Positions 20,545-41,798 of a stretch of DNA of 64,000 nucleotides are shown one piece after another (position 1 is the stretch's first letter; every line of letters starts with the position of its first letter). The notes beneath the pieces are model-generated. The model did no database searches and was not told where the DNA came from. It worked only from the letters and a program-made list of their open reading frames with translations. Source of the DNA: a virus; the IMG/VR virus record IMGVR_UViG_3300045988_127716, positions 30,446 to 94,445 of that record. One strand, 5' to 3'. Both the position numbers and the translations under genes were made by a program.

Positions 20545-20618
20545 TCCTTACTATTAAAATGACTCAATTATTATAAAAAACAATACAGATACTTACAATA
20601 TTATAAGAATCAATTTAT

Positions 20619-20674: not shown

Positions 20675-20779
20675 TGGTCTGAAAAACTGGGGAATATAAT
20701 ATTCAATAGTATCTATTTATGACTTTTCTTTTCCTTGCATGATATATTGATACTTACAAGATCAGACAATCTGTAGGTC

Positions 20780-20837: not shown

Positions 20838-20920
20838 AATAGACATTGAAGTATCATTCATATAAGAAAATAATGTTTAGAATAAAAATTATAAAGTCAC
20901 TTACAATATTATCATAATTC

Positions 20921-20994
20921 GTAGAAATAACTCAATAGGATAGAGTACAAAACTTATAATTTTGGTGTTCAGGGTTCAAGTCCCTGTTTTTACA
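20921..20994 (+). tRNA. tRNA-Ile(TAT)
   Basis: Acceptor gtagaaa/tttttac, D-arm actc/gagt, anticodon arm caaaa-ctTATaa-ttttg perfect, T-arm caggg-ttcaagt-ccctg. ACTTACAATA lies 15 nt upstream. Confidence 0.75.
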
Positions 20995-21031
20995 GTGTAA
21001 TTATTATAGTGACTAATTTTATATTTTAAGG

Positions 21032-21133
21032 GGATGGTTTATAACTATTAGTAAATTTATATTTACTTACAAAATCATAAACTGTATGGAAAAATTTACA
21101 CCACAAATGTAGATAAGCAGGTTCGAATCCTGC
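21032..21133 (+). ncRNA. tRNA-like element with ~30-nt insertion (perfect 7-bp long-range acceptor pairing ggggatg/catcccc about 95 nt apart)
   Basis: 5' strand at 21032-21038; T-arm gcagg-ttcgaat-cctgc then catcccc-g. The insertion contains the hairpin agtaaat-ttat-atttact followed by tacaaaatc (the ACTTACAAAATC motif). Confidence 0.4.
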
Positions 21134-21170
21134 CATCCCCGCAAAAGCTACTTACAATAAGATTTAAATT

Positions 21171-21243
21171 ATAACAATAGCTCAATAGGCTGAGCAAATT
21201 TCTGGGGAAAATTAGGTTGTAGGTTCAAGTCCTACTTGTTAAT
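21171..21243 (+). tRNA. tRNA-Pro(GGG)
   Basis: 73 nt. D-arm gctc-aataggct-gagc, anticodon arm aattt-ctGGGga-aaatt perfect, T-arm gtagg-ttcaagt-cctac. Acceptor ataacaa/ttgttaa has an A-A at position 1:72. Motif lies 21 nt upstream. Confidence 0.65.
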
Positions 21244-21277
21244 AAATTTAAAAGTAGCTATTTTTATGAATACTTAA

Positions 21278-21688
21278 TTGGACATTATGTATGATATTAA
21301 TAGAATGAAAGGAGATTTATATGTAAATCATTATCTCTATAAATCTCGTAATGAATACAATCAAATAATTGTATGTGAGATATATAGAGACATTCATGAA
21401 CATATAAATTTCACATTCTATATAACTAGCAAAAGAAAGAGGGGATTTCAAGAAGGAAAGATAACTGGTAAAGATGGAATAAAATCTTTAATATGGGCGA
21501 AAAATTGTCTATTAGATTTTATTAAATATGCTAAACATCATTATCCAAAAGATATTATTACAATTTGGGCGACAGATAAAAGAAGATATAAAGTATATGA
21601 GAGAAGTTTAATTCCATTAGGATTTAAGCATGCAAATGATAGATATAGACATTTTTATCTTAAACTTGATGAATATAGTATAGAATAA
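21278..21688 (+). CDS. hypothetical protein
   Basis: 136-aa ORF embedded in the tRNA island. Confidence 0.4.
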   Translation: MDIMYDINRMKGDLYVNHYLYKSRNEYNQIIVCEIYRDIHEHINFTFYITSKRKRGFQEGKITGKDGIKSLIWAKNCLLDFIKYAKHHYPKDIITIWATDKRRYKVYERSLIPLGFKHANDRYRHFYLKLDEYSIE

Positions 21689-21694
21689 TTAATA

Positions 21695-21808
21695 GGGGAG
21701 GTTGAAATGTTGGAATAAGAGTATCAGTTCATTGTGATACTTACAAAATCAAATTAATTTTCGAATAAATTTGGGTTTTATCTTAACGCAGGTTCGATTC
21801 CTGTCCTC
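21695..21808 (+). ncRNA. tRNA-like element with ~35-nt insertion (perfect 7-bp long-range acceptor pairing ggggagg/cctcccc); 3' part contains a Pro(TGG)-like anticodon arm
   Basis: 5' strand 21695-21701. Insertion has the hairpin agtatca-gttcattg-tgatact followed by tacaaaatc. Then ataaa-ttTGGgt-tttat arm, then T-arm gcagg-ttcgatt-cctgt, then cctcccc-a. Confidence 0.4.
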
Positions 21809-21854
21809 CCCACTACGTTTCGTAAGAGCAAATAGTCAGACACTTACAATACTA

Positions 21855-21927
21855 TAAATTGTAGCTCATTGGGTAGAGCATTTGATTTTTAATCAAAGGG
21901 TAATGGGTTCAAATCCCATCTTAGTGT
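21855..21927 (+). tRNA. tRNA-Lys(TTT), copy 1, with non-pairing acceptor stem as drawn
   Basis: Canonical D-arm tagctcattgggtagagca, anticodon arm tttga-ttTTTaa-tcaaa, T-arm atggg-ttcaaat-cccat. But the 5' strand taaattg does not pair with 3' cttagtg. Motif lies 4 nt upstream. Confidence 0.45.
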
Positions 21928-21939
21928 CTATTTTTAAAT

Positions 21940-22011
21940 TGAGACATCGTATAACGGTTAATACATCAGATTTTGGTTCTGAGAATCTAGGTTCGAATCC
22001 TAGTGCCTCAA
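21940..22011 (+). tRNA. tRNA-Gln(TTG)
   Basis: Acceptor tgagaca/tgcctca (one mismatch), D-arm gtat/atac, anticodon arm tcaga-ttTTGgt-tctga perfect, T-arm ctagg-ttcgaat-cctag. Confidence 0.7.
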
Positions 22012-22101
22012 CATTTATTCTTGTTTATTGTTCCATATGTGTTATTGAATGAGTGTATAGGTAGAAATACTTATACACTCTTTTTATTTAAAATTAGTTA
22101 T

Positions 22102-23553
22102 ATGTTATTTAAGAAAGAATATAAGATAGGAGATGTAGTTACATTTTTCCTTAGAGATGGTAAAGAAGAATTTATTGCCACTTTTAAAGTTGAGCTTGAG
22201 TCACTGCCTACAGTATCATTTTATTATTTAAAAGGATTTACTGAAAAATATGGTGAAGAGTGTGGTAGTCATTATTCCACTTGGAATAAAATTCTTTCCA
22301 TGTATGAAAGTTGGGCAGTACAGGCAAGTGAGAGAACTTTAAAAAATCTTGTTAAAGATTGTCAAGATCAAAAGTCATTCAAATGTAATTGTCCTGAGGG
22401 AAGTATATCACCAGAATTCGCTAATCTGGGAGAGTTAAATGTTTTCATTAGAGCTTTTAGATTATTATTAATAGATAAGTACCTTAATCTTTGTTCTACT
22501 TCAGAATCTATACAAAAATTAATAAGCAAAGCTAATGAAAACTATGAAGAATTTTCCTCAACTATTTACAAAGATGCCTTATCTTATAGTCAGGCAAAGG
22601 AGTATTTATACCGGTATGTTACTTATAAAAATTCCATTCAAGAACAACCTATTAATATAATAGGCAATGGAACAATTACAGCATCTACTATATCTCCTCA
22701 GGAATTTACAATTACTCAAGTTAAGAAAGAAGAAGAAAAACCTATTATAAAAGAAAATTTAATTATGAAAGAAGATGTATTATTCTCAAAAGAAGGAAAA
22801 GAAGCAACTTTTGTAAATCCGTTAAACAATATTTTTGGAAATATGTTCAAAGGTATGAATATGCAAGGAGCTAACATCGAATTTGGGTTTATCCAAGATC
22901 AATCAATTGCTATCTCACCTAAAGGAATCGCATTCTTTGATCCAGAAACTCAAGGATACAAAGCATGGGATGCTAATAATAAAGAGTTAGTAGATATGGG
23001 AACTTTTGCTATGCAAGGTATCTTTATGAAAGTTCCTGTGAAAAGAGAAAGTCTTAAAGAAGGAGATATTCTCCTCATCCAAGATGAGTACAGAATCTTT
23101 GATGGCTTTGCTACTAAGACCATGAAATTGATTAATCCTCTTACAGGAGTACAAACTAATAAACAAAAACAAACTAACATTTTGAATTTTAATGTATTCA
23201 TTAAAGTTGTTTGTGCAATGAATCCTTTTGCTAAAGGAACTATGAATGAATTCATGAAAATTAGCATGATGAGTTCTATGTTTGGAGGTCAAGGAATGCA
23301 GGGAATGTTTGGAGGTAATTGTGGAAGAGATATGGTATCTCAAATGTTCCAACTACAAATGTTAAGTAGTCTTTTTGGAAACGGTAAAGGATTTGATCTA
23401 AATTTCGATATGGATTTTGGATCTGTTTTTGATTCAGTGTTAGGAACTGAAGCTACTGAAGAGTCAGAGTTGAAAAAGAAGCTCAAGGCTCTTGAAAAAG
23501 AAAATGCTAAACTCAAAGCAGCAAAAGAAGAATCTAAAGATAAAGAAGATTAA
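22102..23553 (+). CDS. hypothetical protein with Q/M/G-rich low-complexity region and C-terminal coiled coil
   Basis: Listed ORF starts at 22003 but nt 22003-22011 overlap tRNA-Gln. Internal ATG 22102 (MLFKKEYKIGD…) is preferred. …GQGMQGMFGGNCGRDMVSQMFQLQMLSSLFGNG… then ELKKKLKALEKENAKLKAAKEESKDKED. Confidence 0.45.
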   Translation: MLFKKEYKIGDVVTFFLRDGKEEFIATFKVELESLPTVSFYYLKGFTEKYGEECGSHYSTWNKILSMYESWAVQASERTLKNLVKDCQDQKSFKCNCPEGSISPEFANLGELNVFIRAFRLLLIDKYLNLCSTSESIQKLISKANENYEEFSSTIYKDALSYSQAKEYLYRYVTYKNSIQEQPINIIGNGTITASTISPQEFTITQVKKEEEKPIIKENLIMKEDVLFSKEGKEATFVNPLNNIFGNMFKGMNMQGANIEFGFIQDQSIAISPKGIAFFDPETQGYKAWDANNKELVDMGTFAMQGIFMKVPVKRESLKEGDILLIQDEYRIFDGFATKTMKLINPLTGVQTNKQKQTNILNFNVFIKVVCAMNPFAKGTMNEFMKISMMSSMFGGQGMQGMFGGNCGRDMVSQMFQLQMLSSLFGNGKGFDLNFDMDFGSVFDSVLGTEATEESELKKKLKALEKENAKLKAAKEESKDKED

Positions 23554-23739
23554 GATTTAGATAGGAATAATTTTTATGAAAATTTCTTATAAAATTATTT
23601 GGAATTTGAAAATTATTACCTTATCTTTGTATTCATCTTCGATAAGATAAACTGTTGAAAGGAATTTAATAGTTCTAAGTAAATAAAGGATGAGAGTTTC
23701 ATAAAATATTATCATATTTTACTTTAGATCATCCTAAAT

Positions 23740-23814
23740 GGGTTCTTAGCCAAGTAGGTAAAGGCACCTGACTCATAATCAGGAGATACGCTGGTTCGAT
23801 CCCAGCAGAGCCCA
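23740..23814 (+). tRNA. tRNA-Met(CAT), copy 2
   Basis: Acceptor gggttct/agagccc, anticodon arm cctga-ctCATaa-tcagg perfect, T-arm gctgg-ttcgatc-ccagc. Confidence 0.75.
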
Positions 23815-23824
23815 CATATACTAT

Positions 23825-23897
23825 ATAGGTGTAGTTCAGTTGGTAGAACGCTGCATTTGGGATGCAGAGGCCGCTAGTTCAAGTCTAGTCACCTATA
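23825..23897 (+). tRNA. tRNA-Pro(TGG)
   Basis: Acceptor ataggtg/cacctat perfect, anticodon arm ctgca-ttTGGga-tgcag perfect, T-arm gctag-ttcaagt-ctagt. Confidence 0.75.
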
Positions 23898-23923
23898 CAA
23901 ATTTAACCTAATCCAATTAAATT

Positions 23924-24214
23924 ATGAGATATTTATTCATTTTATTAGTTATCCTATTACTAGGTAGTTGTACAATTTCTCCTAAAAGAGAAGAACCAAA
24001 AACTATAGATTCTAAAATAGAATTAATTACTCCTGATACTTGTTTAGTCAGAATTGATGATGGGATGTTTTATATAACCACTACAAATAATGTAATTATG
24101 TACAAAGCAACTCAATATGATTCTGAATTTTTATCAGTGCCTTTATCTGTGATAATTGCCCTTTCTATTATATTTTTATTTGGACTTGTAGGTTTTATAA
24201 CACTATTTAAATAG
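23924..24214 (+). CDS. small lipoprotein-like/membrane protein
   Basis: 96 aa. N-terminal signal peptide with lipobox-like LLGSC, C-terminal hydrophobic helix. Confidence 0.4.
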   Translation: MRYLFILLVILLLGSCTISPKREEPKTIDSKIELITPDTCLVRIDDGMFYITTTNNVIMYKATQYDSEFLSVPLSVIIALSIIFLFGLVGFITLFK

Positions 24215-24320
24215 AATAATACTTTAAATCCAAGTTGGTGGTAAGGACTTTAACATCACTTTGTACATCATTGTATAATAAACCCATGTGAGTAGTATTT
24301 AAAATGGAGGCTCACAAATT

Positions 24321-24408
24321 GGAAGATTGCTAGAACGGTAATAGAACAGTCTTGAAAACTGATGTAACGTAATCATTCGTTGAGCAGGTTCGACTCCTGC
24401 ATCTTCCT
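24321..24408 (+). tRNA. tRNA-Ser(TGA), type II
   Basis: Acceptor ggaagat/atcttcc perfect, anticodon loop ctTGAaa, long variable arm with aacg/cgtt stem, T-arm gcagg-ttcgact-cctgc. Confidence 0.75.
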
Positions 24409-24419
24409 CATTAAATAAT

Positions 24420-24491
24420 GCTCCAATAGTTTAACGGATAAAACAATTCTCTTCTAAAGAATAAATTCTAGTTCGATTCTAGGTTGGAGTA
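24420..24491 (+). tRNA. tRNA-Arg(TCT)
   Basis: D-arm gttt/aaac, anticodon arm attct-ctTCTaa-agaat perfect, T-arm tctag-ttcgatt-ctagg. Confidence 0.75.
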
Positions 24492-24501
24492 CTAGTTATA
24501 A

Positions 24502-24573
24502 GCATTTGTGGTGCAACTGGTAGCATTTCGGATTCCAACCCCGAAGATCAGAGTTCGAATCTTTGCAAATGTG
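24502..24573 (+). tRNA. tRNA-Trp(CCA)
   Basis: Acceptor gcatttg/caaatgt, anticodon loop ttCCAac, T-arm cagag-ttcgaat-ctttg. Confidence 0.7.
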
Positions 24574-24658
24574 CGATTTTACTAAATAAAAATTTTATTA
24601 TAACTTTTCTTGTTATACTTCTATAGTTTCAGTATTTTTGTAGTACAAAATATGTACT

Positions 24659-25144
24659 ATGAAATACGAACATGATTATTCTAAAGAAACATTATCTGAA
24701 ATAGTTTCTAAATGTAGTAACTTAGCTCAAGTATGCAGAGCATATGGAATAACTTCCAGCTCAGGAAACTACAAAACCATCAAGAAAAAGATACAAGAAT
24801 TTAACATAGATATATCTCACTTTACTAGAAAACTTAAAAAAGTAAAGGTATCAGAGAGAGTAAATAATATAGAAGATATTTTAGTAGAAAATTCTCCATA
24901 TCAAAATATTTCTTCCTTAAAGAAAAAGATTTTGAAACAAGGTCTCATGGAATATAAGTGTGCAATATGTGGAATTTCTGAGTGGCTGGGCAATCCTTTA
25001 TCTTTACAATTAGATCACATAAATGGAATTAGTAACGACCATAGACTAGAAAACTTACGACTTGTGTGCCCTAATTGTCATTCACAAACTGAAACATTTG
25101 CGGGAAGAAATGTAAAATTATTAAATGCTTCTAAGACAGAATGA
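24659..25144 (+). CDS. freestanding HNH homing endonuclease
   Basis: 161 aa. N-terminal HTH-like region, C-terminal …CAICGISEW…LQLDHINGISNDHRLENLRLVCPNCHSQTE HNH/zinc-ribbon motif. Lies between tRNA genes. Confidence 0.8.
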   Translation: MKYEHDYSKETLSEIVSKCSNLAQVCRAYGITSSSGNYKTIKKKIQEFNIDISHFTRKLKKVKVSERVNNIEDILVENSPYQNISSLKKKILKQGLMEYKCAICGISEWLGNPLSLQLDHINGISNDHRLENLRLVCPNCHSQTETFAGRNVKLLNASKTE

Positions 25145-25533
25145 ATGTAACAAATTTATCTAAAGAAGAAAGATTGAAGCTCTTTCAAGAGTGGATGGAT
25201 GCTAATAAGAAAGCTAATAAAGAGGGGTATAATCCAGATATAACATCTAAAGATGGATATTATCTTACATTTGGCCATGATTATGATATATCTAAAGAAG
25301 AATTAGAAGATCCTAATTTCTATTTAATAGAATGGGGAGAAAGTTCTAAACTTCCTTATTGGATGAGACAAATGGCTGATAAAATAGGCAAAAGATGTAC
25401 TATAGATTGTTCTGGAGAAACAGGGATATTTTTGGGATTTACAGCTTCTTATGAGGATTTTTATTATAGAATAAAGCTTGATACAGGTGAGAATACATTA
25501 GAAACTTGTGTAAGTAATTTATTATTTGAATAG
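25141..25533 (+). CDS. hypothetical protein
   Basis: 130-aa ORF, 4-nt overlap with the HNH gene. Its stop overlaps the start of tRNA-Ile(GAT) by 2 nt. Confidence 0.4.
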   Translation: MNVTNLSKEERLKLFQEWMDANKKANKEGYNPDITSKDGYYLTFGHDYDISKEELEDPNFYLIEWGESSKLPYWMRQMADKIGKRCTIDCSGETGIFLGFTASYEDFYYRIKLDTGENTLETCVSNLLFE

Positions 25534-25603
25534 GATTATCTTCCAAAGGTTAGGAAACTTGACTGATACTCAAGCAATCATGGTTCGAATCCATGTAATC
25601 CTA
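25532..25603 (+). tRNA. tRNA-Ile(GAT)
   Basis: Acceptor aggatta/taatcct perfect, D-arm ttcc/ggaa, anticodon arm cttga-ctGATac-tcaag perfect, T-arm catgg-ttcgaat-ccatg. Confidence 0.8.
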
Positions 25604-25705
25604 CCCATTAAGTAGTAATACTTGGTGCTGTTCGGAGTTAAGTTGAAAGTGCGCCTCTGCAACCGGGAAATGTTGTAAAACTAATTAGAAAAACTTATCG
25701 CACCA

Positions 25706-25737
25706 TGAGAGGGAGACAGTTGACCTCTCACTTTTTG
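25706..25737 (+). terminator. rho-independent terminator
   Basis: tgagagg-gagacagttga-cctctca followed by ctttttg. Confidence 0.55.
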
Positions 25738-25905
25738 TAAATAGAACTATAAAAACTAGCAACTGTACTGATGAGAGTATGTACAGGACTTTTTAAGTCA
25801 AATCTCTCACTTTGGGGTCATAGTATAAAGGCTATTATACTAGATTATTTAATTTTTATAGGTATATAATTCAGATTGATTAGGATATACATAGATTACA
25901 ACATT

Positions 25906-25977
25906 GGGGGTATAGTATAGTGGTAATTATATTAGTTTTGCACATTAAAGACCTGAGTTCGATTCTCAGTACCTCCA
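25906..25977 (+). tRNA. tRNA-Ala(TGC)
   Basis: Acceptor gggggta/tacctcc (one G-U), anticodon arm ttagt-ttTGCac-attaa, T-arm ctgag-ttcgatt-ctcag. Confidence 0.7.
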
Positions 25978-26064
25978 CAAGTCTAGTATTTAAAAAAGTG
26001 TTGAATTTTGTTTGATTCGAACTAATATGTTCGTATATTTGCATATATCAAATGTGCGAATATT

Positions 26065-26634
26065 ATGAGCAAATATAATAAAGAAGAATTAGAAAATTTA
26101 ATACTTGACCAGAACTTATCATACGAAGCTATTGGAAGGATGTATGGAGTTACTGGTAATGCCATTAAGAAGGCAGCTACTAGATTAGGTATAAAATTAC
26201 CCTCAAGAAGGAAGATTAATCCTTGTGAGACATTTAACAAAGATAATTCTAAAGAAGTTAGACATTGCTTAAATTGTGATAAAGAGCTAGATTACAGTGC
26301 TAAGAAATTTTGCTCTCATGAATGCCAACAGGAGTATCAATATTTAACTTATATAGATAGATGGAAGAAAGGATTAGAAACAGGAACTAAAGGTTCTGAT
26401 GCAGTATCAAACTATCTTCGTAAATATTTATTTAATAAGTTTAATAACAAATGTTGTAAATGTCATTGGCTAGAAACTAATCCTTATAGTGGACTTATTC
26501 CTCTACAAGTACATCATAAAGATGGAAATTGCCTTAATAATAATGAAGATAATTTAGAATTATTATGTCCTAATTGTCATGCATTGACTGAAAATTATGG
26601 AAATTTAAATAAAAACTCAAAAAGAATTAGATAG
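26065..26634 (+). CDS. freestanding HNH homing endonuclease
   Basis: 189 aa. HTH-like N-terminus (…AIGRMYGVTGNAIKKAATRLGI…), C-terminal …CCKCHW…LQVHHKDGNCLNNNEDNLELLCPNCHALTE HNH motif. Between tRNA-Ala and an orphan T-arm fragment. Confidence 0.8.
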   Translation: MSKYNKEELENLILDQNLSYEAIGRMYGVTGNAIKKAATRLGIKLPSRRKINPCETFNKDNSKEVRHCLNCDKELDYSAKKFCSHECQQEYQYLTYIDRWKKGLETGTKGSDAVSNYLRKYLFNKFNNKCCKCHWLETNPYSGLIPLQVHHKDGNCLNNNEDNLELLCPNCHALTENYGNLNKNSKRIR

Positions 26635-26639
26635 TCTAA

Positions 26640-26670
26640 AGATCTGGGTTCGATTCCCAGTGATTCCACA
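26640..26670 (+). other. orphan tRNA 3' fragment (T-arm plus 3' acceptor strand) immediately after the HNH gene
   Basis: ctggg-ttcgatt-cccag then tgattcc-a-caa. No matching 5' half within 100 nt upstream (that stretch is HNH coding sequence). Resembles the 3' ends of the tRNAs at 17303 and 25906. Confidence 0.5.
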
Positions 26671-26678
26671 ATTATTTA

Positions 26679-26764
26679 AGTACCTTTGGCCGAGTGGACG
26701 ATGGCAGCAGACCGTTAATCTGCCGGGAGAAATCCTCACCGTAAGTTCGAATCTTACAGGGTAC
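26679..26764 (+). tRNA. tRNA, type II (86 nt), anticodon loop ccGTTaa (GTT) with C at position 33; isotype uncertain
   Basis: Ser/Leu-like D-arm tggccgagtggacgatggc, acceptor gtacctt/agggtac (one G-U), anticodon stem gcaga/tctgc perfect, long variable arm, T-arm gtaag-ttcgaat-cttac. Confidence 0.55.
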
Positions 26765-26896
26765 GCTCATTCTTAACCTACATCCTAGGATGCTAACATA
26801 GTTGTACAAGAATGTCTTTACAGTGTTAGGTGGATACAAAGACGCTGGCTGCAGCGTGATACTCAATGGTGGAATTAAGAGCAGCACCACCAATTT

Positions 26897-26967
26897 GCAG
26901 GTATAGCACAGTGGTAGTGCAGGAGCCTTCCAAGCTCACTACGTGGGTTCGATTCCCATTACCTGCT
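26897..26967 (+). tRNA. tRNA-Gly(TCC)
   Basis: Acceptor gcaggta/tacctgc perfect, D-arm gcac/gtgc, anticodon loop ctTCCaa, T-arm gtggg-ttcgatt-cccat. Confidence 0.75.
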
Positions 26968-26997
26968 CTATTAATTAACACATTAAATAAGATAATT

Positions 26998-27354
26998 ATG
27001 ATCAATTTAGAAGAGAAAATTAAAAATAATGAAGATTTAATTAGAAAGTATACATTAGATCAATGGATTGTGCTATTAAAGCATATATGTATATCTTGTA
27101 TAAGAATTCCTTCTAAAAAGGAAATAGAATCTATTATGAATGCAAATTCATTTAAAGTAGAATATGCAGAAGGAAGGATTATAAAAATAGAACTTTACAC
27201 AAATAATCTGTGTTGGGAAGACTTTAAAATGGAGTTAAATATATTAAATATAGTAATTTCTAGACAGAAAGGATATAACACATTTGAACAAATTACATTT
27301 ATTCCTCTTGAAGTGTTTAAAATATTAAATGATGGTATTTTTAAATGTAAATAA
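26998..27354 (+). CDS. hypothetical protein
   Basis: Listed ORF 26866-27354 overlaps tRNA-Gly. Internal ATG 26998 (MINLEEKIKNNEDL…) is preferred. Confidence 0.4.
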   Translation: MINLEEKIKNNEDLIRKYTLDQWIVLLKHICISCIRIPSKKEIESIMNANSFKVEYAEGRIIKIELYTNNLCWEDFKMELNILNIVISRQKGYNTFEQITFIPLEVFKILNDGIFKCK

Positions 27355-27360
27355 TTATAT

Positions 27361-27435
27361 TGCGGGATAGACTGGAGAGGTTCCAGCTCAGTCTCATAAG
27401 CTGAATTACGTGAGTTCGATTCTCACTCCCGCAAC
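27361..27435 (+). tRNA. tRNA-Met(CAT), copy 3
   Basis: Acceptor tgcggga/tcccgca perfect, anticodon arm tcagt-ctCATaa-gctga, T-arm gtgag-ttcgatt-ctcac. Three CAT tRNAs in total; which is fMet, Met or lysidine-Ile cannot be told by eye. Confidence 0.7.
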
Positions 27436-27461
27436 TATTTATTACTTAAATTAGATAAATT

Positions 27462-27869
27462 ATGATTAATCTACAAGTTATTCCCTTTGAAGAATTACTT
27501 CAATGGAAAGAGAAAATTCAAGAAGAATTGGACAGAAGAGATCTCTATGCATTCGATATTACTGTAAAAGCATTATTTGAACTTCATCCAGAAAAGAAAG
27601 TATTAGTGTTAGGAATGTCTTATAAAGCATATGATGCCCCTTATGAAACAGGAACTAGTTCTGCAATTTGGGTTGATGAGGCATTTGGGGAATATAAAGA
27701 AGATGATATAATCAACTTCTGCGAGGATGAGGAGACAGAGAATCTTATTCAAAAGTTAGCAAGATGCTTTAACCTTGAAGAAGACAATGAATTATATCCT
27801 GGACAAAGATGTATTTATTATATAGATAGATCTGATCCAGAGAATATTCAGACATATATAGAGGGTTAA
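27462..27869 (+). CDS. hypothetical acidic protein
   Basis: 135-aa ORF. Confidence 0.4.
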   Translation: MINLQVIPFEELLQWKEKIQEELDRRDLYAFDITVKALFELHPEKKVLVLGMSYKAYDAPYETGTSSAIWVDEAFGEYKEDDIINFCEDEETENLIQKLARCFNLEEDNELYPGQRCIYYIDRSDPENIQTYIEG

Positions 27870-27881
27870 TAATCCTCTAAT

Positions 27882-27955
27882 GGAACTGTAGCTCAGTAGG
27901 TAGAGCACTAGATTGAAGATCTAGGTTTGCACTGGTTCGATCCCAGTTAGTTCCA
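27882..27955 (+). tRNA. tRNA-Phe(GAA)
   Basis: Canonical D-arm tagctcagtaggtagagca, anticodon arm ctaga-ttGAAga-tctag perfect, T-arm actgg-ttcgatc-ccagt, acceptor ggaactg/tagttcc. Confidence 0.8.
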
Positions 27956-28230
27956 CGTTTAATATTCTATAATAGACTATTATGTAGTATAGTTTTATTA
28001 TGTTGAATATATGTTTTAAGTAGTTGTATCATTGAAAACTACTCCCTCTTAGTGCTTTGGTTGGTAAAATAAAGCAGGCGAAAGTTTCAGCTCTTTCTAG
28101 AGAGTCTTTCAGACAGCCATAAGGAATTTGAAAAATTGTATTCTAGACCTTTCATACTAGAAGGTTAAAAGTATGATATTTATTGTGCACAATTTTAGGG
28201 GAGAGGTACATGTACTATCTCCCTAAATAT

Positions 28231-28302
28231 TACCCTGTAACTCAATGGCAGAGTACTACACTTTTAATGTAGGAGTTGTGGGTTCAAGTCCCATCAGGGT
28301 AA
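28231..28302 (+). tRNA. tRNA-Lys(TTT), copy 2
   Basis: Acceptor taccctg/cagggta perfect, D-arm actc/gagt, anticodon arm ctaca-ctTTTaa-tgtag perfect, T-arm gtggg-ttcaagt-cccat. Confidence 0.75.
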
Positions 28303-28312
28303 CTAATTTTAT

Positions 28313-28386
28313 AGAGGATTAACTCAGCGGTTGAGAGTGTCACTTTTACACAGTGAAAGTCATAGGTTCGAATCCTATATCCTCTA
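28313..28386 (+). tRNA. tRNA-Val(TAC)
   Basis: Acceptor agaggat/atcctct perfect, anticodon arm tcact-ttTACac-agtga perfect, T-arm atagg-ttcgaat-cctat. Confidence 0.8.
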
Positions 28387-28388
28387 CT

Positions 28389-28462
28389 GTGTTATTAGCT
28401 TAGTTGGTTAAAGCGCTGGGTTGTGGTTCCAGAGATCATGGGTTCAAGTCCCATATAACACC
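28389..28462 (+). tRNA. tRNA-His(GTG)
   Basis: Acceptor gtgttat/ataacac perfect, D-arm gctt/aagc, anticodon arm ctggg-ttGTGgt-tccag, T-arm atggg-ttcaagt-cccat. Confidence 0.8.
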
Positions 28463-28478
28463 TAATGTTTAATTTTAT

Positions 28479-28566
28479 GGAAGGTTACTCAAATTGGTTA
28501 AGAGGACACATTGCTAACGTGTTAGAGCAGTAAAATGCTGTGAGAGTTCGAACCTCTCACCTTCCT
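28479..28566 (+). tRNA. tRNA-Ser(GCT), type II
   Basis: Acceptor ggaaggt/accttcc perfect, anticodon loop ttGCTaa, long variable arm, T-arm gagag-ttcgaac-ctctc. Confidence 0.75.
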
Positions 28567-28584
28567 CAAATAATAAATAATGCA

Positions 28585-28725
28585 ATGGAAAAGAGATTTA
28601 AAGTAATAACTAAAATGAATCAGATTCATTTAGTTACAATAGAAACAGAAGAGAAGTATAAATTAGGGTTATACTTATCCTATTTAACAGAATTATTTGG
28701 TGAATCAGAAATAATTTCTCTATAA
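28585..28725 (+). CDS. small hypothetical protein
   Basis: Listed ORF 28540-28725 overlaps tRNA-Ser. Internal ATG 28585 (MEKRFKVITKMNQ…) is preferred. 46 aa. Confidence 0.3.
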   Translation: MEKRFKVITKMNQIHLVTIETEEKYKLGLYLSYLTELFGESEIISL

Positions 28726-28730
28726 TAAAT

Positions 28731-29036
28731 ATGGAAAGTAATATTGAGATAAATGACGGAGATATTATCCAATTTAAGAATGAAAATAATTCAAGATATT
28801 GGGTTGCAATACATCATTCTAAATGTAATATGGATAATAGAGAGAAATTTAGAAGAAATATCGCTGATCATACTGGATATTATTTATTTAGTGGAATTTG
28901 GTATGAGGGAGATATTTTAACTGATAAACCTTATGGAAAATGTATAGAACAGCTCAGAAGAGGTATGTTTCCCAATATAGAAATAGTAGGAAATATTATT
29001 AAAGATTTTGAGAAGTTTAAAGAAATGTTAATGTAG
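28731..29036 (+). CDS. hypothetical protein
   Basis: 101-aa ORF. Confidence 0.4.
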   Translation: MESNIEINDGDIIQFKNENNSRYWVAIHHSKCNMDNREKFRRNIADHTGYYLFSGIWYEGDILTDKPYGKCIEQLRRGMFPNIEIVGNIIKDFEKFKEMLM

Positions 29037-29047
29037 CATTTATATAA

Positions 29048-29119
29048 GTCGGGTTCATCTAGGGGTCAGGATTACAGATTTTCGATCTGTTCACAGGGGT
29101 TCAAATCCCCTACCCGATA
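29048..29119 (+). tRNA. tRNA-Glu(TTC)
   Basis: Acceptor gtcgggt/acccgat, D-arm atct-aggggtca-ggat, anticodon arm acaga-ttTTCga-tctgt perfect, T-arm agggg-ttcaaat-cccct. Confidence 0.75.
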
Positions 29120-29229
29120 CAAAATTTAGTTAAACAATAATGGCAGCTTAATAGTATAGGTGATGCTTTTTTATCTAATTAGAAATAATTTAATTAAGAA
29201 GCACTCAACCTATATTATTAAGATTTTAA

Positions 29230-29303
29230 GCACCTGTAGCCCAATTGGCAGAGGCAATAGATTTAGGCTCTATCCAGTGTGAGTTCGAATCTCACTAGGT
29301 GTA
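29230..29303 (+). tRNA. tRNA with anticodon TAG (Leu-type anticodon) but type-I length (74 nt)
   Basis: Acceptor gcacctg/taggtgt (two G-U), anticodon arm ataga-ttTAGgc-tctat perfect, T-arm gtgag-ttcgaat-ctcac. The short variable region is unusual for tRNA-Leu. Confidence 0.55.
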
Positions 29304-29346
29304 CGAAAATCAAGAAAGAACAGGTTTTCGATTTTTTGGTGCAGTT

Positions 29347-29396
29347 TGGGGTATTTGAAGATTGATTTCATCTTTGAATACCCCATTTTTATTTTC
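29347..29396 (+). terminator. strong rho-independent terminator closing the tRNA island
   Basis: ggggtatttgaagat…atctttgaatacccc 15-bp stem (two G-U) followed by atttttatttt. Confidence 0.75.
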
Positions 29397-29589
29397 ATAC
29401 CTAACTTCAAAATATGAGCCTATTTTATACCCAAAATGACATGATTTTTAAAATCTCATTCTGGAACTGTATATTGAAAATAATAAAAATTTCATAAGGT
29501 GTATATATAATGAAATTATGAGTAGTTTAGTTAAATATTTTTAAATTTATTTGATGTTGAATTTTATAAATAATAGATAGAATATAATT

Positions 29590-30045
29590 ATGAATGATTA
29601 CACATTTAAAAATCCTTGTTGTGAGGATGGCAGAACATCTACATTCCATAATTGTGCTGAATTTAAAGAAAAGTTCAGGGAATTTTTGAGGGTATTTAGT
29701 AGGTTTAGTTCTGATATCCTTGGTTATAAAGAGGATAAAGAAGAGAGAATTTGGTCTGGAAACAGGTTTGACAGAAGAGAAGATTGTGAACGTTTTGAAG
29801 AAGAGCTTCTTTTGTATTTAAGATTAAGAGCATATCTTAGTTTTAGAAACTGGTTAGTGACCAAAAAAGATTATGTATCAAATATAAGAATAGTATACTC
29901 TTACAATGAAAACAGATGGGTAGTAAGCAGTGAAAAGAATAAAGGAATCTTGGCTTTGTATGTAGATACACTTGAACATGCTGAAAAGGTTGCTAATATG
30001 CTTAACTATAGTAAAGCAGAGTTTGATAATTTATTTTCTGAATAA
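29590..30045 (+). CDS. hypothetical protein
   Basis: 151-aa ORF. Confidence 0.4.
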   Translation: MNDYTFKNPCCEDGRTSTFHNCAEFKEKFREFLRVFSRFSSDILGYKEDKEERIWSGNRFDRREDCERFEEELLLYLRLRAYLSFRNWLVTKKDYVSNIRIVYSYNENRWVVSSEKNKGILALYVDTLEHAEKVANMLNYSKAEFDNLFSE

Positions 30046-30048: not shown

Positions 30049-30540
30049 ATGAAAAGATTTATTTTAATTATTGGTATTATATTTATATCACTATCAGGGT
30101 TTTCTCAAGAGGTAGTATCTAGGGATTCTACAAATATATTATCAGAGAAAATATATAATGATGTAAAACAGGCTATAGTAGGAGCCTCTCAAGCCCTTAA
30201 AGTAGGAGCTGAGAATGTTTATGAAATTGTTAAAGCTCAGCAGGCTGTTAATAGTATTATCAATCTTTGTGTGATTGTATGTGGTGTTCTTCTAACTTTA
30301 CTTATATTTCGTTATCTTAAATCTACTATAAAAGTAGTGACAAAGAAGGATGAGAAGGGAAAAGCTATTGATTGGTATTATAATAAAGACTCAGAAACAT
30401 GGGCATTTGCACATGTATTAGGAGGAACGATGTTAGCGGTAATAGTAGTATTTACTATGGTCACTATTAAAAATACTATAACAGGATTTTTAAATCCAGA
30501 CTTTGGAGTTATTAATTATTTATTAGAATTTATAAAATGA
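30049..30540 (+). CDS. membrane protein (signal/anchor plus two TM helices)
   Basis: 163 aa. Hydrophobic N-terminus and two internal TM segments. First gene of the NfeD/flotillin cluster. Confidence 0.45.
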   Translation: MKRFILIIGIIFISLSGFSQEVVSRDSTNILSEKIYNDVKQAIVGASQALKVGAENVYEIVKAQQAVNSIINLCVIVCGVLLTLLIFRYLKSTIKVVTKKDEKGKAIDWYYNKDSETWAFAHVLGGTMLAVIVVFTMVTIKNTITGFLNPDFGVINYLLEFIK

Positions 30541-31067
30541 TAGATATTATATTAACATTAGCTATAGTAGTTTCTGCTATATTTATAATCCAATTCTTAG
30601 TATCTATATTAGGTATGGGAGTAGACATGGATGTTGATTTAGATTCTAGCTTTGATACTGATATAGATAGTACAGGTTCTACAGTAGGAGACTTAATATC
30701 CTTTAAAGGAGTATTGCATTTCTTATTAGGATTCTGTTGGACTTTAGTATTGTTGAAGGAGATTAAAGCTCTAACTGTAGCCGTTGCTATAGGAGTTGGA
30801 ATACTATTTGTAATAGTACTATATCATGTATATAAAGGTATTAATAAATTAAAATCTGAACCAACTAGAGAAACTTTATCAGATCTAGTAGGAAGATCTT
30901 GTACTATATATTGTAAACTACCTAATGAAAATGGATATATGGTGAGTATAGTTGTTAATGGTTTAGTAACAGAAAAGACTGTATTTTCTCAATCCAATAC
31001 ACCTTATGAGGTAGGAGATATAGTATTTATTGCAGATTGTAATGATGAGTTTTTATTTATTGAATAG
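30537..31067 (+). CDS. NfeD-like membrane protein (N-terminal TM helices, C-terminal OB-fold-like domain)
   Basis: 176 aa. TM helices, then …GRSCTIYCKLPNENGYMVSIVVNGLVTEKTVFSQSNTPYEVGDIVFIADCNDEFLFIE typical of short NfeD C-domains. Immediately upstream of an SPFH/flotillin gene. Confidence 0.5.
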   Translation: MIDIILTLAIVVSAIFIIQFLVSILGMGVDMDVDLDSSFDTDIDSTGSTVGDLISFKGVLHFLLGFCWTLVLLKEIKALTVAVAIGVGILFVIVLYHVYKGINKLKSEPTRETLSDLVGRSCTIYCKLPNENGYMVSIVVNGLVTEKTVFSQSNTPYEVGDIVFIADCNDEFLFIE

Positions 31068-31091
31068 TTATATAATTTTAATTAGTTAAAA

Positions 31092-32918
31092 ATGGAAGGA
31101 TTAGATTTAAGTTCACTATTAATTGTAGCAGGAATTTTAGTTGTAGTAATTATTATTACTATCATTGCGGTTTTATCAAGATATAGGAAATGTCCTCCTG
31201 ATAAAATCTTAATAATTTATGGTAAATCTTCTAAGGATAAAGAAGGTAATAAGAAACCTTCTAAGGTTATTCATGGAGGATCTACATTTGTTTGGCCTTA
31301 TTTCCAAGGTTATACCACAATGTCCTTAATTCCAATTCAGTTTAAATGTACTATTGCTGATGCATTATCAAGTCAATATATTAGAGTAACTGTGCCTATT
31401 ACAGCTACAGTTGCTGTAAATTCTGAAGAACCATTTGTTCAAAATGCAGTGAGTAGATTGGCTGGATTGACTGAGGATACTATTATAGAAATGACTAGAG
31501 AAATTATCTATGGCCAATTTAGGGAAATTATTTCTAAATCTTCTATTGAACAGTTAAATGCTGACAGAGATGCTTTTAGAACTAACTGTGAGCAAAGTAT
31601 TGCTAGTGAGTTAAATAAACTAGGATTGAAACTTATCAATATTAACATTGTGGATATTCAAGATGAAGCTGGATATATTGCAAATATTGGTAAGAAAGAA
31701 GCAGCTAAGGCAGTTAATCAAGCTAAAGTAGAAACCGCAGAGGAAGACAAACAAGGAGCAACTAAGAGTGCTGAGATTGAAAAGGATAAAGCAACCCAAG
31801 TAGCAGAGACTGAGAAGAATAGAATTAGTATTTTAGCAGAAACTAAGAAAGAAGAAGCTATTAAGGTTGCAGAAACTGAGAAGAATAGAGTAAGTGCTCT
31901 AGCAGAGATTGAGAAGGAGAAAGCTACTCAAGTAGCAGAAGCTGATAGGATTAGAGAGACCACTGTGGCTGAAACCAAAGCTCAAGAAAGTGCAAGTATT
32001 GTACAATCTAAGAATAATGCAGCTGTAGAAATTGCTAAATCAGATGCAGAAAGGGAATCTAAACAAGTAGAGTTTGATAACTCTAAGGAAATTAAGATTG
32101 CCCAATCTAATTCTGAAATGGAAATTAGAAAAGCGGAAGCTGAGAAGAATGCAATGGTTGGGAAGAATGAGGCAATGAAAGCTGTTGCAACCTCTGAAGG
32201 AGAATTGAAAGTAACTGAAGCAGAAGCTGAGAGAAAAGCTAGAGAGGCTCAAGTAATTGCAGATGCTAAGGTTAAAGAAAGACAAGAGCTTCAACAAAAA
32301 GCTGTAGAAGAAGCTAGAGCACAAAAGGTTGAAACCCAGTTAAAAGCTGAAAAGATTGTTCCTGCAGAAATTGAGAAGGAGAAAGCTCGTCTTAATGCGG
32401 AGGCTTATCAGAATGAAGTAACTGGTAAAGCTAAAGCTGAAGCTGAGGCTATTAAACTCAAAGCAGAGGCAGAAGCAGCTGCAATTAGATTAAAACAAGA
32501 AGCAGAAGCAGCAGGTATTCAGGCTAAACTTGAAGCTGAGGCTGAGGGTAAGAGAAAGTCTGCATTGGCTGAGGCTGAGGGATTTAAGGCAACCATGGAA
32601 GCAGCTAAAGGAAATGAAACCTTAGCAATTCATTACAAGATGGTTACTCAATACAAAGAAATTGCTGGTGAGCAGGTTAAAGCATTTGAGAAGATGAACC
32701 TTGGAAATATCAATATCTTTGATACTGGTGATGGTAAAGGTGCTGGGAAGTTCATGAGAGATATTGTTAACACAGTTGCACCTGCAACTAGTGTGTTATC
32801 CGAAATGCCAGTAATTGGAAAAGCTGTAAAAGCATTAGAGAGTGCTTTGGATAAGAAGAATGAGAGTGGGAATGAAGAGGGAGATGTTAAATCTTCTGCT
32901 TTTGAAGAAGTAAAGTAA
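31092..32918 (+). CDS. SPFH/band-7 flotillin-like protein (YqiK/FloA-like) with long EA-rich coiled coil
   Basis: 608 aa. N-terminal TM (LLIVAGILVVVIIITIIAVL), SPFH-like domain (…KVIHGGSTFVWPYFQGYTTMSLIPIQF…IRVTVPITATVAV…), then about 300 aa of A/E/K-rich repeats (flotillin-type coiled coil). Confidence 0.65.
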   Translation: MEGLDLSSLLIVAGILVVVIIITIIAVLSRYRKCPPDKILIIYGKSSKDKEGNKKPSKVIHGGSTFVWPYFQGYTTMSLIPIQFKCTIADALSSQYIRVTVPITATVAVNSEEPFVQNAVSRLAGLTEDTIIEMTREIIYGQFREIISKSSIEQLNADRDAFRTNCEQSIASELNKLGLKLININIVDIQDEAGYIANIGKKEAAKAVNQAKVETAEEDKQGATKSAEIEKDKATQVAETEKNRISILAETKKEEAIKVAETEKNRVSALAEIEKEKATQVAEADRIRETTVAETKAQESASIVQSKNNAAVEIAKSDAERESKQVEFDNSKEIKIAQSNSEMEIRKAEAEKNAMVGKNEAMKAVATSEGELKVTEAEAERKAREAQVIADAKVKERQELQQKAVEEARAQKVETQLKAEKIVPAEIEKEKARLNAEAYQNEVTGKAKAEAEAIKLKAEAEAAAIRLKQEAEAAGIQAKLEAEAEGKRKSALAEAEGFKATMEAAKGNETLAIHYKMVTQYKEIAGEQVKAFEKMNLGNINIFDTGDGKGAGKFMRDIVNTVAPATSVLSEMPVIGKAVKALESALDKKNESGNEEGDVKSSAFEEVK

Positions 32919-32924: not shown

Positions 32925-32958
32925 AGAGGAGTTAGGAAACTAACTCCTCTTTTTATTT
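32925..32958 (+). terminator. rho-independent terminator after flotillin gene
   Basis: agaggagtta-ggaaac-taactcctct 10-bp perfect stem, then ttttatttg. Confidence 0.7.
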
Positions 32959-32966: not shown

Positions 32967-33287
32967 ATGAAGCAAGTATTAGTTTTTGTAAAGGCTAAGA
33001 ATTCTTTATTGTTTAGACAATATTCAACTTGTGTTCCTAAGGGAGAATTACTTCCAGATGAAACTCCAGTTAAAGCAGCGATGAGAATTCTTAAAGAAAT
33101 ATATGGATTAAGATTTAAAGAACTACAATTTATAGAGCTAGATAATAATGAAAAGCATGTAAATGTAGGTCTTTCTTTAGATTATTATCCAGAAAGTTAT
33201 ATGGATGAAGATCCAACATTTGTAGATACTAAAGAAGTTTCTTTAAACGGAGAGTGTCCTTTAACAGAAAAATTTCTTACTAAATAA
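32967..33287 (+). CDS. hypothetical protein
   Basis: 106-aa ORF. Confidence 0.4.
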   Translation: MKQVLVFVKAKNSLLFRQYSTCVPKGELLPDETPVKAAMRILKEIYGLRFKELQFIELDNNEKHVNVGLSLDYYPESYMDEDPTFVDTKEVSLNGECPLTEKFLTK

Positions 33288-40320: not shown

Positions 40321-40639
40321 ATGTGAATATTGCAGAAGTGTTAATGTATGTATAGATAGTCCTAACTGTAATACAACTGGACACTTTTGTACTAAATTAA
40401 ATAGATTAGTTTCTATTAATAAACCTGTTGACGAAGATTGTCCATTTTATTTTAATAAATATAGTTATAGGGAGTTAATCAATTTAAGAGATTCTTTAAT
40501 TTCAGAACTGTACAAAATTAGAGTTAAATGGCGCAAAGGAATTACTGTCACTTTAGAAGATTCACTATTTGCTCAGGATATCGAAGATACAATATACAAT
40601 GTATTTAATAAATTATTAGATAAACAAAATGGAGATTAA
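40304..40639 (+). CDS. Cys-rich small protein (possible zinc-binding)
   Basis: 111 aa with CEYC…C…C…C…C pattern in the first 50 residues. Confidence 0.35.
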   Translation: MNCVAECEYCRSVNVCIDSPNCNTTGHFCTKLNRLVSINKPVDEDCPFYFNKYSYRELINLRDSLISELYKIRVKWRKGITVTLEDSLFAQDIEDTIYNVFNKLLDKQNGD

Positions 40640-41798
40640 ATCAATTTTAGATACAGATCTATATAAATTCTCTGTATCATATGCTTATATGAGATTATTC
40701 CCAGACGCAATTGGAACATTTGAATTTGTAGATAGGAATAAATCTCATTATACAGAAGATGATCTGGATTATATAAATTATGAACTTGCAAATCTTTCTG
40801 CACTTAAATTAAGTGATAATGAAAAAAGATTTATGCAAGATAGATGTTACTTTATTCCAGACTACTATTTTGAATGGTTACAATCATTTAAATTTGATTG
40901 TAGAAATTTATCTATTTCCTTAGATGAAGAAAATCATCTTCATATAAAAGTTACAGATTATTTATATAAAGTAACTCTTTGGGAAATTCCAATTCTTGCA
41001 ATAGTTAGTAGAACCCAGCATAGAGAAGACAAATGGAATATAGATGATTTATATACTAGAACTAGTAATAAAGTACACAACCTTCCATATGAATTCAAAG
41101 TCGCCGATTTCGGAACCAGAAGAAGATTTAATTTTGAAGTTCAGTCAGAAGTGATTGATAAACTATTACATGACTGTCCTCAGAATTTTGTTGGAACATC
41201 CAATTGTTATATAGCTTATCTAAGAGATATTAAAATGATTGGAACTTTTCCTCATGAGTGGGTGATGTTTCATGGTGCTATGTATGGATATGATCAAGCT
41301 AACTATTTAGCTTTAGAGAATTGGGTTAATGTATATGATGGAGAATTAGGAATTGCTTTATCTGATACTTACACATCTGATGTGTTCTTTAGAAATTTCT
41401 CTAAGAAACATGCAAGATTATTTGATGGAGTAAGACAAGATTCTGGAGATCCATTTCAGTTTATTAATAAATGTATTGATAGGTATAGAGAATTAAATGT
41501 AGATCCTCTTACTAAGACTATTGTATTCTCTGATTCATTAGATTTCAAGAAAGCAGTTGATATATTTAATTGCTGTAAGGGAAGGATTAAATGTTCATTT
41601 GGAATTGGAACTAATTTAACTTGCGATTTAGAGGGAGTTAAACCTTCTAATATTGTGATGAAGTTAGTTTCTTGTCAGATGAATAGTAAACAACCTGTGA
41701 AGAAATGTATTAAACTATCTGATGTAGAAGGAAAACATATAGGTGATCCAGAAGAAGTAGCGTTAGCACAAATGATAATAAGTCAACATTATGAGTGA
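40629..41798 (+). CDS. pncB: nicotinate phosphoribosyltransferase (PncB-type, NAPRTase family)
   Basis: 389 aa. N-terminal ILDTDLYKFSVSYAYMRLFP resembles the PncB N-terminus (LLDTDAYKL…). Size fits PncB (about 400 aa) rather than NAMPT (about 480 aa). Adjacent to PncA. Confidence 0.65.
   Translation: MEIKSILDTDLYKFSVSYAYMRLFPDAIGTFEFVDRNKSHYTEDDLDYINYELANLSALKLSDNEKRFMQDRCYFIPDYYFEWLQSFKFDCRNLSISLDEENHLHIKVTDYLYKVTLWEIPILAIVSRTQHREDKWNIDDLYTRTSNKVHNLPYEFKVADFGTRRRFNFEVQSEVIDKLLHDCPQNFVGTSNCYIAYLRDIKMIGTFPHEWVMFHGAMYGYDQANYLALENWVNVYDGELGIALSDTYTSDVFFRNFSKKHARLFDGVRQDSGDPFQFINKCIDRYRELNVDPLTKTIVFSDSLDFKKAVDIFNCCKGRIKCSFGIGTNLTCDLEGVKPSNIVMKLVSCQMNSKQPVKKCIKLSDVEGKHIGDPEEVALAQMIISQHYE

Follow-up and report, generated by a model that had tools for sequence, protein, structure and literature searches.

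The stretch of viral DNA examined here, hereafter the window, comprises 64,000 nucleotides (nt; positions 30,446 to 94,445 of the IMG/VR virus record IMGVR_UViG_3300045988_127716), and the subject of this analysis is a pair of adjacent genes within it, encoding a short membrane protein with an NfeD-like C-terminal domain and a flotillin. Four co-directional open reading frames (ORFs) of 151, 163, 176 and 608 amino acids (aa) are listed on the + strand at this locus. The last two are the NfeD-like gene (30537-31067) and the flotillin gene (31092-32918), which are separated by a gap of 24 nt and follow one another as an earlier note on this DNA, made from the sequence alone, had claimed. Position 30049, at which that note had let the pair begin, marks the start not of the 176-aa gene but of one it left undescribed, which encodes a 163-aa membrane protein (30049-30540) and whose stop shares 4 nt with the start of the NfeD-like gene.

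The 608-aa protein was assigned to the flotillins of the prokaryotic SPFH2 type on the basis of Pfam, NCBIfam and PDB matches and of its hydropathy. Its single hydrophobic segment, a transmembrane (TM) anchor at residues 10-28 (nt 31119-31175, mean Kyte-Doolittle value 3.49), is directly followed by the basic stretch SRYRKC and then by an SPFH/Band_7 domain at residues 53-220 (nt 31248-31751), for which the Pfam Band_7 model (PF01145) gives E=2.3e-25 and 90.1 bits against a cut-off of 23.6 and is matched over profile positions 14-176 of 176. Residues 206-500 (nt 31707-32591) form by composition and repeats an A/E/K-rich coiled coil, with 54.6% A+E+K, 11/22-residue repeats and one proline only, and the Flot model (PF15975) matches the C-terminal domain at residues 481-553 (nt 32532-32750), marginally, with 27.5 bits against a cut-off of 27.0. 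The peptide quoted in the earlier note, AEAEAIKLKAEAEAAAIRLKQEAEAAG, is found in the translated ORF, and the N-terminal TM segment, the SPFH-like domain and the A/E/K-rich coiled coil that had been described from the letters are all confirmed. With both hidden Markov models (HMMs) above their cut-offs, the alternative of a coiled-coil protein of generic or SMC-like kind that lacks an SPFH core is ruled out, and a chance feature is also excluded, since the E-values lie far below those expected by chance for an ORF of 1.8 kb in a genome of 30% GC.

Placement within the SPFH superfamily follows from several comparisons. Homologues of the flotillin number 2,560 at E<=1e-10, most of them with both PF01145 and PF15975 (nearly all close ones with a precomputed PF15975 match). 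The NCBIfam FloT model (NF058507) covers residues 12-405 with 143 bits, and because this is far under the equivalog cut-off of 700 the protein is placed in the flotillin family without being a FloT orthologue. Among PDB entries (9bq2, 9l3g) human flotillin-1 (E=8.5e-17) and flotillin-2 (E=7e-13) rank best, followed by the weaker matches to PH stomatin (E=4e-4) and QmcA (E=0.0098), so that the 608-aa protein is nearer to the flotillins than to the stomatin, HflK/C and prohibitin groups.

Recognition of the 176-aa protein as a short NfeD of the NfeD2/YuaF/YqiJ type required more indirect evidence, from a family profile and a structure model. Alone, the protein finds no informative match in Pfam, NCBIfam, PHROGs, PADLOC or PDB, a word-indexed homology search returned 4 relatives only, and the resulting 5-sequence profile gave one weak PDB match (E=0.62), to the OB domain of STOPP, the Pyrococcus stomatin operon partner protein (3wwv). 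An exhaustive profile search then yielded a family of 1,116 representatives, mainly 160-200 aa in length. From a diverse set of 61 members, 16 individually reach Pfam NfeD (PF01957), at best with E=1.5e-6, and the 61-sequence profile matches the soluble domain of B. subtilis YuaF (2k14) with E=3.2e-4 across the whole C-terminal domain. AlphaFold2 produced an unusable model from only 5 sequences (predicted local distance difference test, pLDDT, 59), and with the 61-sequence alignment obtained from the exhaustive search a model of pLDDT 90, in which a five-strand barrel comes after three long helices. The modelled helices (residues 2-24, 50-73 and 78-105) are mirrored by hydropathy peaks at 4-22, 53-76 and 78-96, and the barrel is an OB-fold at approximately residues 119-176 (nt 30891-31064). 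An NfeD-fold partner is therefore a supported assignment, with homology backed transitively through the profile and the predicted structure. Of the earlier description of this protein, the TM helices (three) and the NfeD-type domain, as an OB-fold by profile and model, stand; a direct HMM search gave no match.

No ClpP-type serine protease domain was found in the 176-aa protein by Pfam, which is why it is grouped with the short NfeD2/YuaF/YqiJ type and not with the long NfeD1b/STOPP form. Hinderhofer et al. (2009) described the NfeD2 class as weakly conserved, with three hydrophobic stretches and an all-beta domain, and as encoded in operons with prokaryotic flotillins (PMC2636767); the three N-terminal helices, the all-beta domain and the adjacent flotillin gene of the window fit this class. 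SPFH2-NfeD2 pairs are also known to co-evolve and to be transferred laterally together (PMC2636767). As a separate observation, a strongly acidic DxDxDxD loop is located between TM1 and TM2 at approximately residues 27-52 (nt 30615-30692); it is conserved in the 61-member family alignment with the consensus GxDxDxDxDxD...SFKG, is modelled with low confidence (pLDDT about 60) and may bind cations.

The viral nature of the surrounding genome, which the earlier note had taken for granted in speaking of a phage copy, is borne out by the 100% identity of the locus to the 185,173-bp IMG/VR contig IMGVR_UViG_3300045988_116753, by its tRNAs and transfer-messenger RNA (tmRNA), by a crAss-like PolA and by a phage-type primase and replication initiator. 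The window has a GC content of 30% and carries nearly all of its genes on one strand. It encodes PolA, helicases, a DnaB-like protein, the primase and replication initiator, a GIY-YIG endonuclease and enzymes of nicotinamide adenine dinucleotide (NAD) salvage; within it there are replication-side genes only and no structural genes. The PolA shares 49-52% identity with its counterparts in crAss-like Bacteroides phages such as IAS virus, cr108_1, PhiCrAssBcn and Kehishuvirus, and genome size, PolA and tRNA content, compared with the descriptions in PMC7886860, suggest a crAss-like phage of a possibly Zeta-like group.

Relatives of the pair were collected from viruses and from cells, the viral sample consisting of 80 loci retained out of 263 IMG/VR contigs encoding a relative and the cellular sample of the best 80 of 313 matches among GTDB representative genomes. 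In both samples the two genes are strictly adjacent: an NfeD-like gene lies directly upstream of the flotillin gene in 80/80 viral loci (with gaps of 23-85 nt) and in 75/80 bacterial ones. The best 80 GTDB matches belong nearly all to Bacteroidales (Bacteroides, Phocaeicola, Parabacteroides, Prevotella and allies), share 44-48% identity with the window flotillin and lie in NfeD-flotillin loci flanked by housekeeping genes; a full-length comparison of the window partner with that of Parabacteroides gives 36% identity. Most of the retained viral loci (76/80) encode a 566-aa flotillin with a 164-aa partner, as is typical of the approximately 150-kb epsilon crAss-like phages, and the flotillins of this clade are 66-70% identical to host copies.

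The genomic surroundings bear on one rival explanation, that the flotillin is a virion-associated or assembly protein acting at the membrane in the manner of the SPFH/band-7 lipoprotein of Vi01-like phages. For such a role one may cite a weak match to phrog_200 'lipoprotein' (E=3.8e-6) and the recovery by mass spectrometry of an SPFH band-7 lipoprotein among the proteins of the Vi01-like phage Sajous1 (PMC10892097). The architecture is nevertheless that of a cellular inner-membrane flotillin with an NfeD partner, the anchor is a TM segment and not a lipobox, and no recognisable structural gene is adjacent to the pair either in the window or in the epsilon-type phage csAssE-Sib, which makes a virion role very improbable.

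Retention of the pair in phages was assessed through the ratio of nonsynonymous to synonymous substitution rates (dN/dS), calculated by the Nei-Gojobori method and, for the epsilon flotillin, over 59 random pairs. The epsilon-clade flotillin has a median dN/dS of 0.038 and a maximum of 0.15 and its partner values of 0.02-0.10; between the window and its sister phage the ratios are 0.16 for the flotillin and 0.40 for the NfeD-like protein, with dS saturated. These substitution patterns indicate purifying selection on both proteins in phages, which points to a function mattering within a single infection cycle. GC content at third codon positions (GC3) is 0.22/0.18 in the window genes and 0.42-0.64 in hosts, so that the genes are fully ameliorated, and since GC3 matches the phage rather than the hosts the capture was not recent.

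The same measurements address the idea that the pair is a non-functional passenger, or else a recent host fragment or mis-assembled or mis-binned host DNA. At least one IMG/VR contig classed as viral (L075) bears a copy that hardly differs from the one in Bacteroides hominis, and this contig probably represents host DNA. In the window, by contrast, GC3 of 0.18-0.22 matches the 30%-GC surroundings and is unlike that of the hosts, identity to any cellular copy is about 50%, selection is strongly purifying, the genes are syntenic in the sister phage, as is the pair in 78 epsilon-type contigs, and the flanks consist of tRNA and phage-type replication genes. The passenger idea was rejected on dN/dS and GC3, and the explanation as a whole seems to us barely credible.

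Neighbour-joining (NJ) trees separate two phage lineages, of which the window with its sister contigs L005/L006 is supported by bootstrap values of 100% (flotillin) and 94% (partner), and the epsilon clade by 100% in both trees. A single clade of all sampled viral copies, L075 included, received 0% bootstrap in both. In the partner tree the two phage clades are set as sisters beside a Phocaeicola paralogue. The origin of the phage pair apparently lies in the homologous core operon found in Bacteroidales hosts.

Two sets of loci in these trees deserve separate mention. The copy on L075 (IMGVR_UViG_3300045988_141550, 25 kb) groups tightly with Bacteroides hominis in both trees and probably lies on host DNA or on a host-flanked element. 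Phocaeicola genomes (L097, L099, L134) carry two paralogous NfeD-flotillin operons, the divergent one being placed between ybeY and mnmG, and this divergent copy is the cellular one closest to the phage clades in the partner tree. The Phocaeicola vulgatus-type copy (L094-L099, on approximately 75-kb contigs) was considered as a possible mobile element or phage and rejected as such; its ybeY and mnmG flanks at 45-50% GC identify it as a chromosomal paralogue.

Upstream of the pair in the window lie the two further genes of the co-directional series. The first (29590-30045, +) encodes a 151-aa soluble, lineage-specific protein that has no significant Pfam match and is 37% identical (E=8e-29) to a syntenic 147-aa gene product of the sister phage contig L005. 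The second encodes the 163-aa membrane protein mentioned above, with a signal-like N-terminal segment and two TM segments (hydrophobic segments at residues 1-23, 69-87 and 120-147). It matches phrog_1486 'membrane protein' (E=4e-6), which belongs to the PHROG class 'moron, auxiliary metabolic gene and host takeover', is 39% identical to its syntenic counterpart in L005 and has few homologues; a reading of it as a second NfeD was rejected, there being no similarity to the csAssE-Sib partner.

All four genes appear to be co-transcribed, with the 151-aa and 163-aa genes joining the NfeD-flotillin pair in a four-gene unit, because of the 4-nt overlap, the 24-nt gap, the flanking terminator-like hairpins and the synteny of the whole block in L005 (identities of 37%, 39%, 48% and 67-70%). 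The proposed upstream boundary is a terminator-like hairpin on the + strand with a 16-bp stem and T-run, downstream of a tRNA-Leu gene (29347-29385), and the proposed end is a second one on the same strand with an 11-bp stem and T-run, located 7 nt past the flotillin stop codon (32925-32950). Terminator-like sites number 6 in the window against 1.4 expected in shuffles, and the two strong + strand sites bracket all four genes. The unit lies between the tRNA block and the NAD and replication genes, on the same strand as both, and since it adjoins replication genes early or middle expression is suggested. Directly past the flotillin terminator, a 106-aa ORF (32967-33287, +) matches the N-terminal half of the NUDIX domain only (22.4 bits, cut-off 21.1) and, from this partial match, may be a truncated or divergent NUDIX hydrolase.

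In the epsilon crAss-like loci other genes occupy the upstream position, namely those of an acyl carrier protein (PP-binding, 27.7 bits) and of a 237-aa unknown protein, which precede the pair in 76-77/78 loci and are present neither in host loci nor in the window lineage. In csAssE-Sib (L001, 4460-5412) the acyl carrier protein gene overlaps the start of the NfeD-like gene, and the same is seen in the set of loci L009-L087. Because the upstream genes differ between lineages, each phage lineage has added its own accessory genes to a common core pair. As candidate clients or accessories of the flotillin one may name the 151-aa and 163-aa proteins, and the epsilon acyl carrier protein might connect phage flotillin with lipids.

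The PHROG class of the 163-aa protein also bears on a role in superinfection exclusion or counter-defence, in which a cage would block DNA entry of competing phages or shield the membrane from depolarising abortive-infection effectors. Proteins located in the membrane, one of them from a class comprising morons and host-takeover genes, and a pair conserved in many phages of two lineages would be in keeping with such a role, which the earlier note had put forward as a possibility along with scaffolding and interference with defences. It is, all the same, improbable: none of the three proteins matched any PADLOC-DB 2.0 family at E<=0.01, in both lineages the genes are part of blocks on the early/replication side and do not form an isolated moron, and the literature search yielded no SPFH protein reported in such a role.

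The explanation that we favour, and consider probable with real room for doubt, is that this is a virus-borne prokaryotic flotillin operon, retained by a 185-kb crAss-like gut phage, which makes or reinforces membrane microdomains under the control of the phage. Its steps can be proposed from the solved SPFH assemblies, namely the human flotillin 44-mer dome (9bq2/9l3g), HflK/C-FtsH and QmcA-YbbJ (8z5g) (PMC11260169, PMC12624060). By analogy with these, the 608-aa protein would insert into the host inner membrane through its N-terminal helix during infection, with the basic residues of SRYRKC after the helix predicting a cytoplasmic body, and would oligomerise via its long coiled coil into a closed cage around a fenced-off membrane patch. 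With its three TM helices, the NfeD-like protein would be embedded in the membrane inside this cage, and its OB domain would be docked to the SPFH ring. At a time of disturbed host expression, such phage flotillin microdomains may keep membrane-dependent processes running or bring order to phage membrane proteins; clients or accessories in the window lineage would be the 151-aa and 163-aa proteins, and in epsilon phages the acyl carrier protein would take that position.

Several observations weigh against this explanation or parts of it. The host already has one or two flotillin copies, so that simple supplementation would bring no obvious benefit. As to origin, the window flotillin is just 48-51% identical to hosts and to epsilon-phage copies alike, its lineage is not nested within Bacteroidales in the NJ trees, and we infer the host-to-phage direction of transfer from distribution. 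The 176-aa protein by itself stays below the Pfam NfeD (PF01957) threshold, with no match. For the transcription unit, a sigma-70 scan for a promoter performed at chance level (19 sites against 20.2 expected), and the Bacteroidetes-type motif TTTG...TAnnTTTG is absent from 29386-29590, the approximately 200 nt upstream of the unit.

The presence of host copies is also the starting point of another explanation, according to which the phage flotillin co-assembles with that of the host into hybrid or poisoned cages and so alters microdomain content, for instance in that FtsH-like proteases or the machinery of secretion or envelope synthesis would be trapped or set free to the advantage of the phage. 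Host genomes with one or two paralogous copies would provide the partner, and phage and host proteins are 48-51% identical in the case of the window and 66-70% identical in that of the epsilon clade. Values of this size lie in or above the range separating human flotillin-1 from flotillin-2. These two human proteins do co-assemble, in the solved complex 9bq2 (PMC11260169). The window protein has, in addition, a longer coiled coil than the host proteins (608 against 542-566 aa), and SPFH complexes are reported to show a correlation between the length of the coiled coil and the number of subunits (PMC12624060); the reported interaction of E. coli YbbK/YbbJ and HflK/C with FtsH (PMC2636767) was likewise counted in favour. 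Provision by the phage of its own NfeD partner in 80/80 loci suggests, on the contrary, a self-sufficient complex. Co-assembly shares its biochemistry with the explanation favoured above, outcome alone being different, and on balance we regard it as unlikely.

The cellular role of bacterial flotillins and their NfeD partners, widespread as they are, continues to be debated, and a copy that phages keep under strong purifying selection could serve as a compact means of identifying flotillin clients. In human gut viromes, 13-18% of the crAss-like reads come from epsilon-type crAss-like phages (PMC7886860), and the pair is present on at least 263 IMG/VR contigs; should it act on the inner membrane of Bacteroidales, dominant gut bacteria would be subject to a viral influence that is common yet undiscussed. 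A more far-reaching proposal, which we judge quite unlikely, is that two lineages of abundant gut phages use a captured flotillin-NfeD module for virus-specified membrane microcompartments, each with its own recruited clients, the 163-aa and 151-aa proteins in the window lineage and the acyl carrier protein in the epsilon clade. The cage would enclose or concentrate specific phage or host membrane proteins, such as a lipid-modifying pathway or an FtsH-type protease, as a viral membrane 'organelle' controlling envelope physiology in the long, non-lytic-looking infections of crAss-type phages. There is also a practical aspect, in that the NfeD2-type partner escapes Pfam and NCBIfam in phages and Bacteroidales alike and appears in databases as a 'transmembrane protein' or without annotation, a gap that a profile built from the 1,116 representatives would mend.

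Other features of the window lie outside the flotillin unit. About 27 tRNA genes, interspersed with small ORFs and covering most amino acids, occupy positions 14024-29304 (+), among them an odd one at 17303-17373 whose anticodon ARAGORN left unnamed (Rfam, 56.9 bits) and a partial one at 21861-21920 found by Rfam only. The tmRNA (17397-17909, +) is predicted by ARAGORN with the tag peptide VNIKKGLY* and matches the full Rfam model RF00023 with 51.5 bits (gathering threshold 47, E=7e-18). The Bacteroidetes-type promoter motif TTTG-N17-23-TAnnTTTG occurs 13 times in the window against 4.05 expected, a number reached in 0/100 shuffles; its sites include 13963, 23598, 55924 and 63928 (+) and 9 others, with the recurrent form TTTGGAA...TTATCTTTG, and this enrichment fits a Bacteroidota host.

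Salvage of NAD+ is represented at 40629-42751 (+) by an NAPRTase (E=8e-59) followed by an NAD synthase (E=1e-37), to which the sister phage (L005, 16148-17281) adds an isochorismatase/nicotinamidase-type gene and an ADP-ribosylglycohydrolase. These genes recall the NAD+ systems reported in gut jumbo phages (PMC11662467). Amid the replication genes, a 314-aa GIY-YIG ORF (55983-56927, +) probably encodes a homing endonuclease, and in the crAss-like phage cr116_1 the PolA match falls in two pieces with an endonuclease annotated under the match.

When compared with known systems, the pair belongs to a class that is well known in cells, the SPFH2/NfeD2 operon, and thus to the same class as yuaF-yuaG (NfeD2-FloT) of Bacillus subtilis and yqiJ-yqiK of E. 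coli (PMC2636767). It differs from these two in being carried by a phage, in not being a FloT equivalog, in its longer coiled coil (608 aa), in the two lineage-specific co-oriented genes that precede it and in the strongly acidic DxDxD loop of the partner. The QmcA-YbbJ complex of E. coli (8z5g) represents the SPFH1-NfeD1a combination, in which QmcA is of the stomatin type, has a short coiled coil and forms a 26-mer (PMC12624060).

Individual phage flotillins have already been labelled as such, in csAssE-Sib and in the T5-like Vibrio phage KIT04. The latter (LC487410; L168, 3180-4850) encodes a true 473-aa flotillin, with E=2.7e-73 to the profile. The gene upstream of it was considered as an NfeD and is not detectably one, its 82-aa product having three TM segments, a short acidic loop and no OB domain; it may be an NfeD-like partner that has been truncated, or else be unrelated. 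The SPFH/band-7 proteins of Vi01-like phages are annotated as lipoproteins, and no NfeD partner has been reported for them (PMC10892097). Neither flotillin nor SPFH nor NfeD is mentioned in the text of the csAssE-Sib paper (PMC11054128), the Yutin 2021 survey of crAss-like phages or the Zeta-group paper. In the literature searched, recognition of the phage NfeD partner, the purifying selection, the lineage-specific accessory genes and the fact that at least 263 viral contigs from two lineages have strictly conserved the pair all appear to be unreported.

The closest named cellular relative is the Bacteroidales operon, for instance that of Parabacteroides leei (L004/L120), Bacteroides cellulosilyticus (L089) or Phocaeicola vulgatus (L097), which shares with the window the two-gene layout and short gap, a flotillin 48-50% identical and a partner 35-37% identical over its full length. 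It differs in its housekeeping flanks, its GC content of 45-50%, its shorter coiled coils (flotillins of 542-566 aa) and a partner gene that carries no Pfam annotation. Among phages, a close known system is the pair of the epsilon crAss-like csAssE-Sib (CrAssE-Sib, GenBank OR575929; PMC11054128), which is likewise phage-borne, with a flotillin 49-51% and a partner 40-42% identical to those of the window and with the labels 'flotillin family protein' and 'transmembrane protein' in the GenBank record. That pair sits inside the replication module and is under purifying selection as in the window lineage, but the epsilon copies constitute a separate lineage in both trees, lie closer to the hosts and are preceded by other upstream genes.

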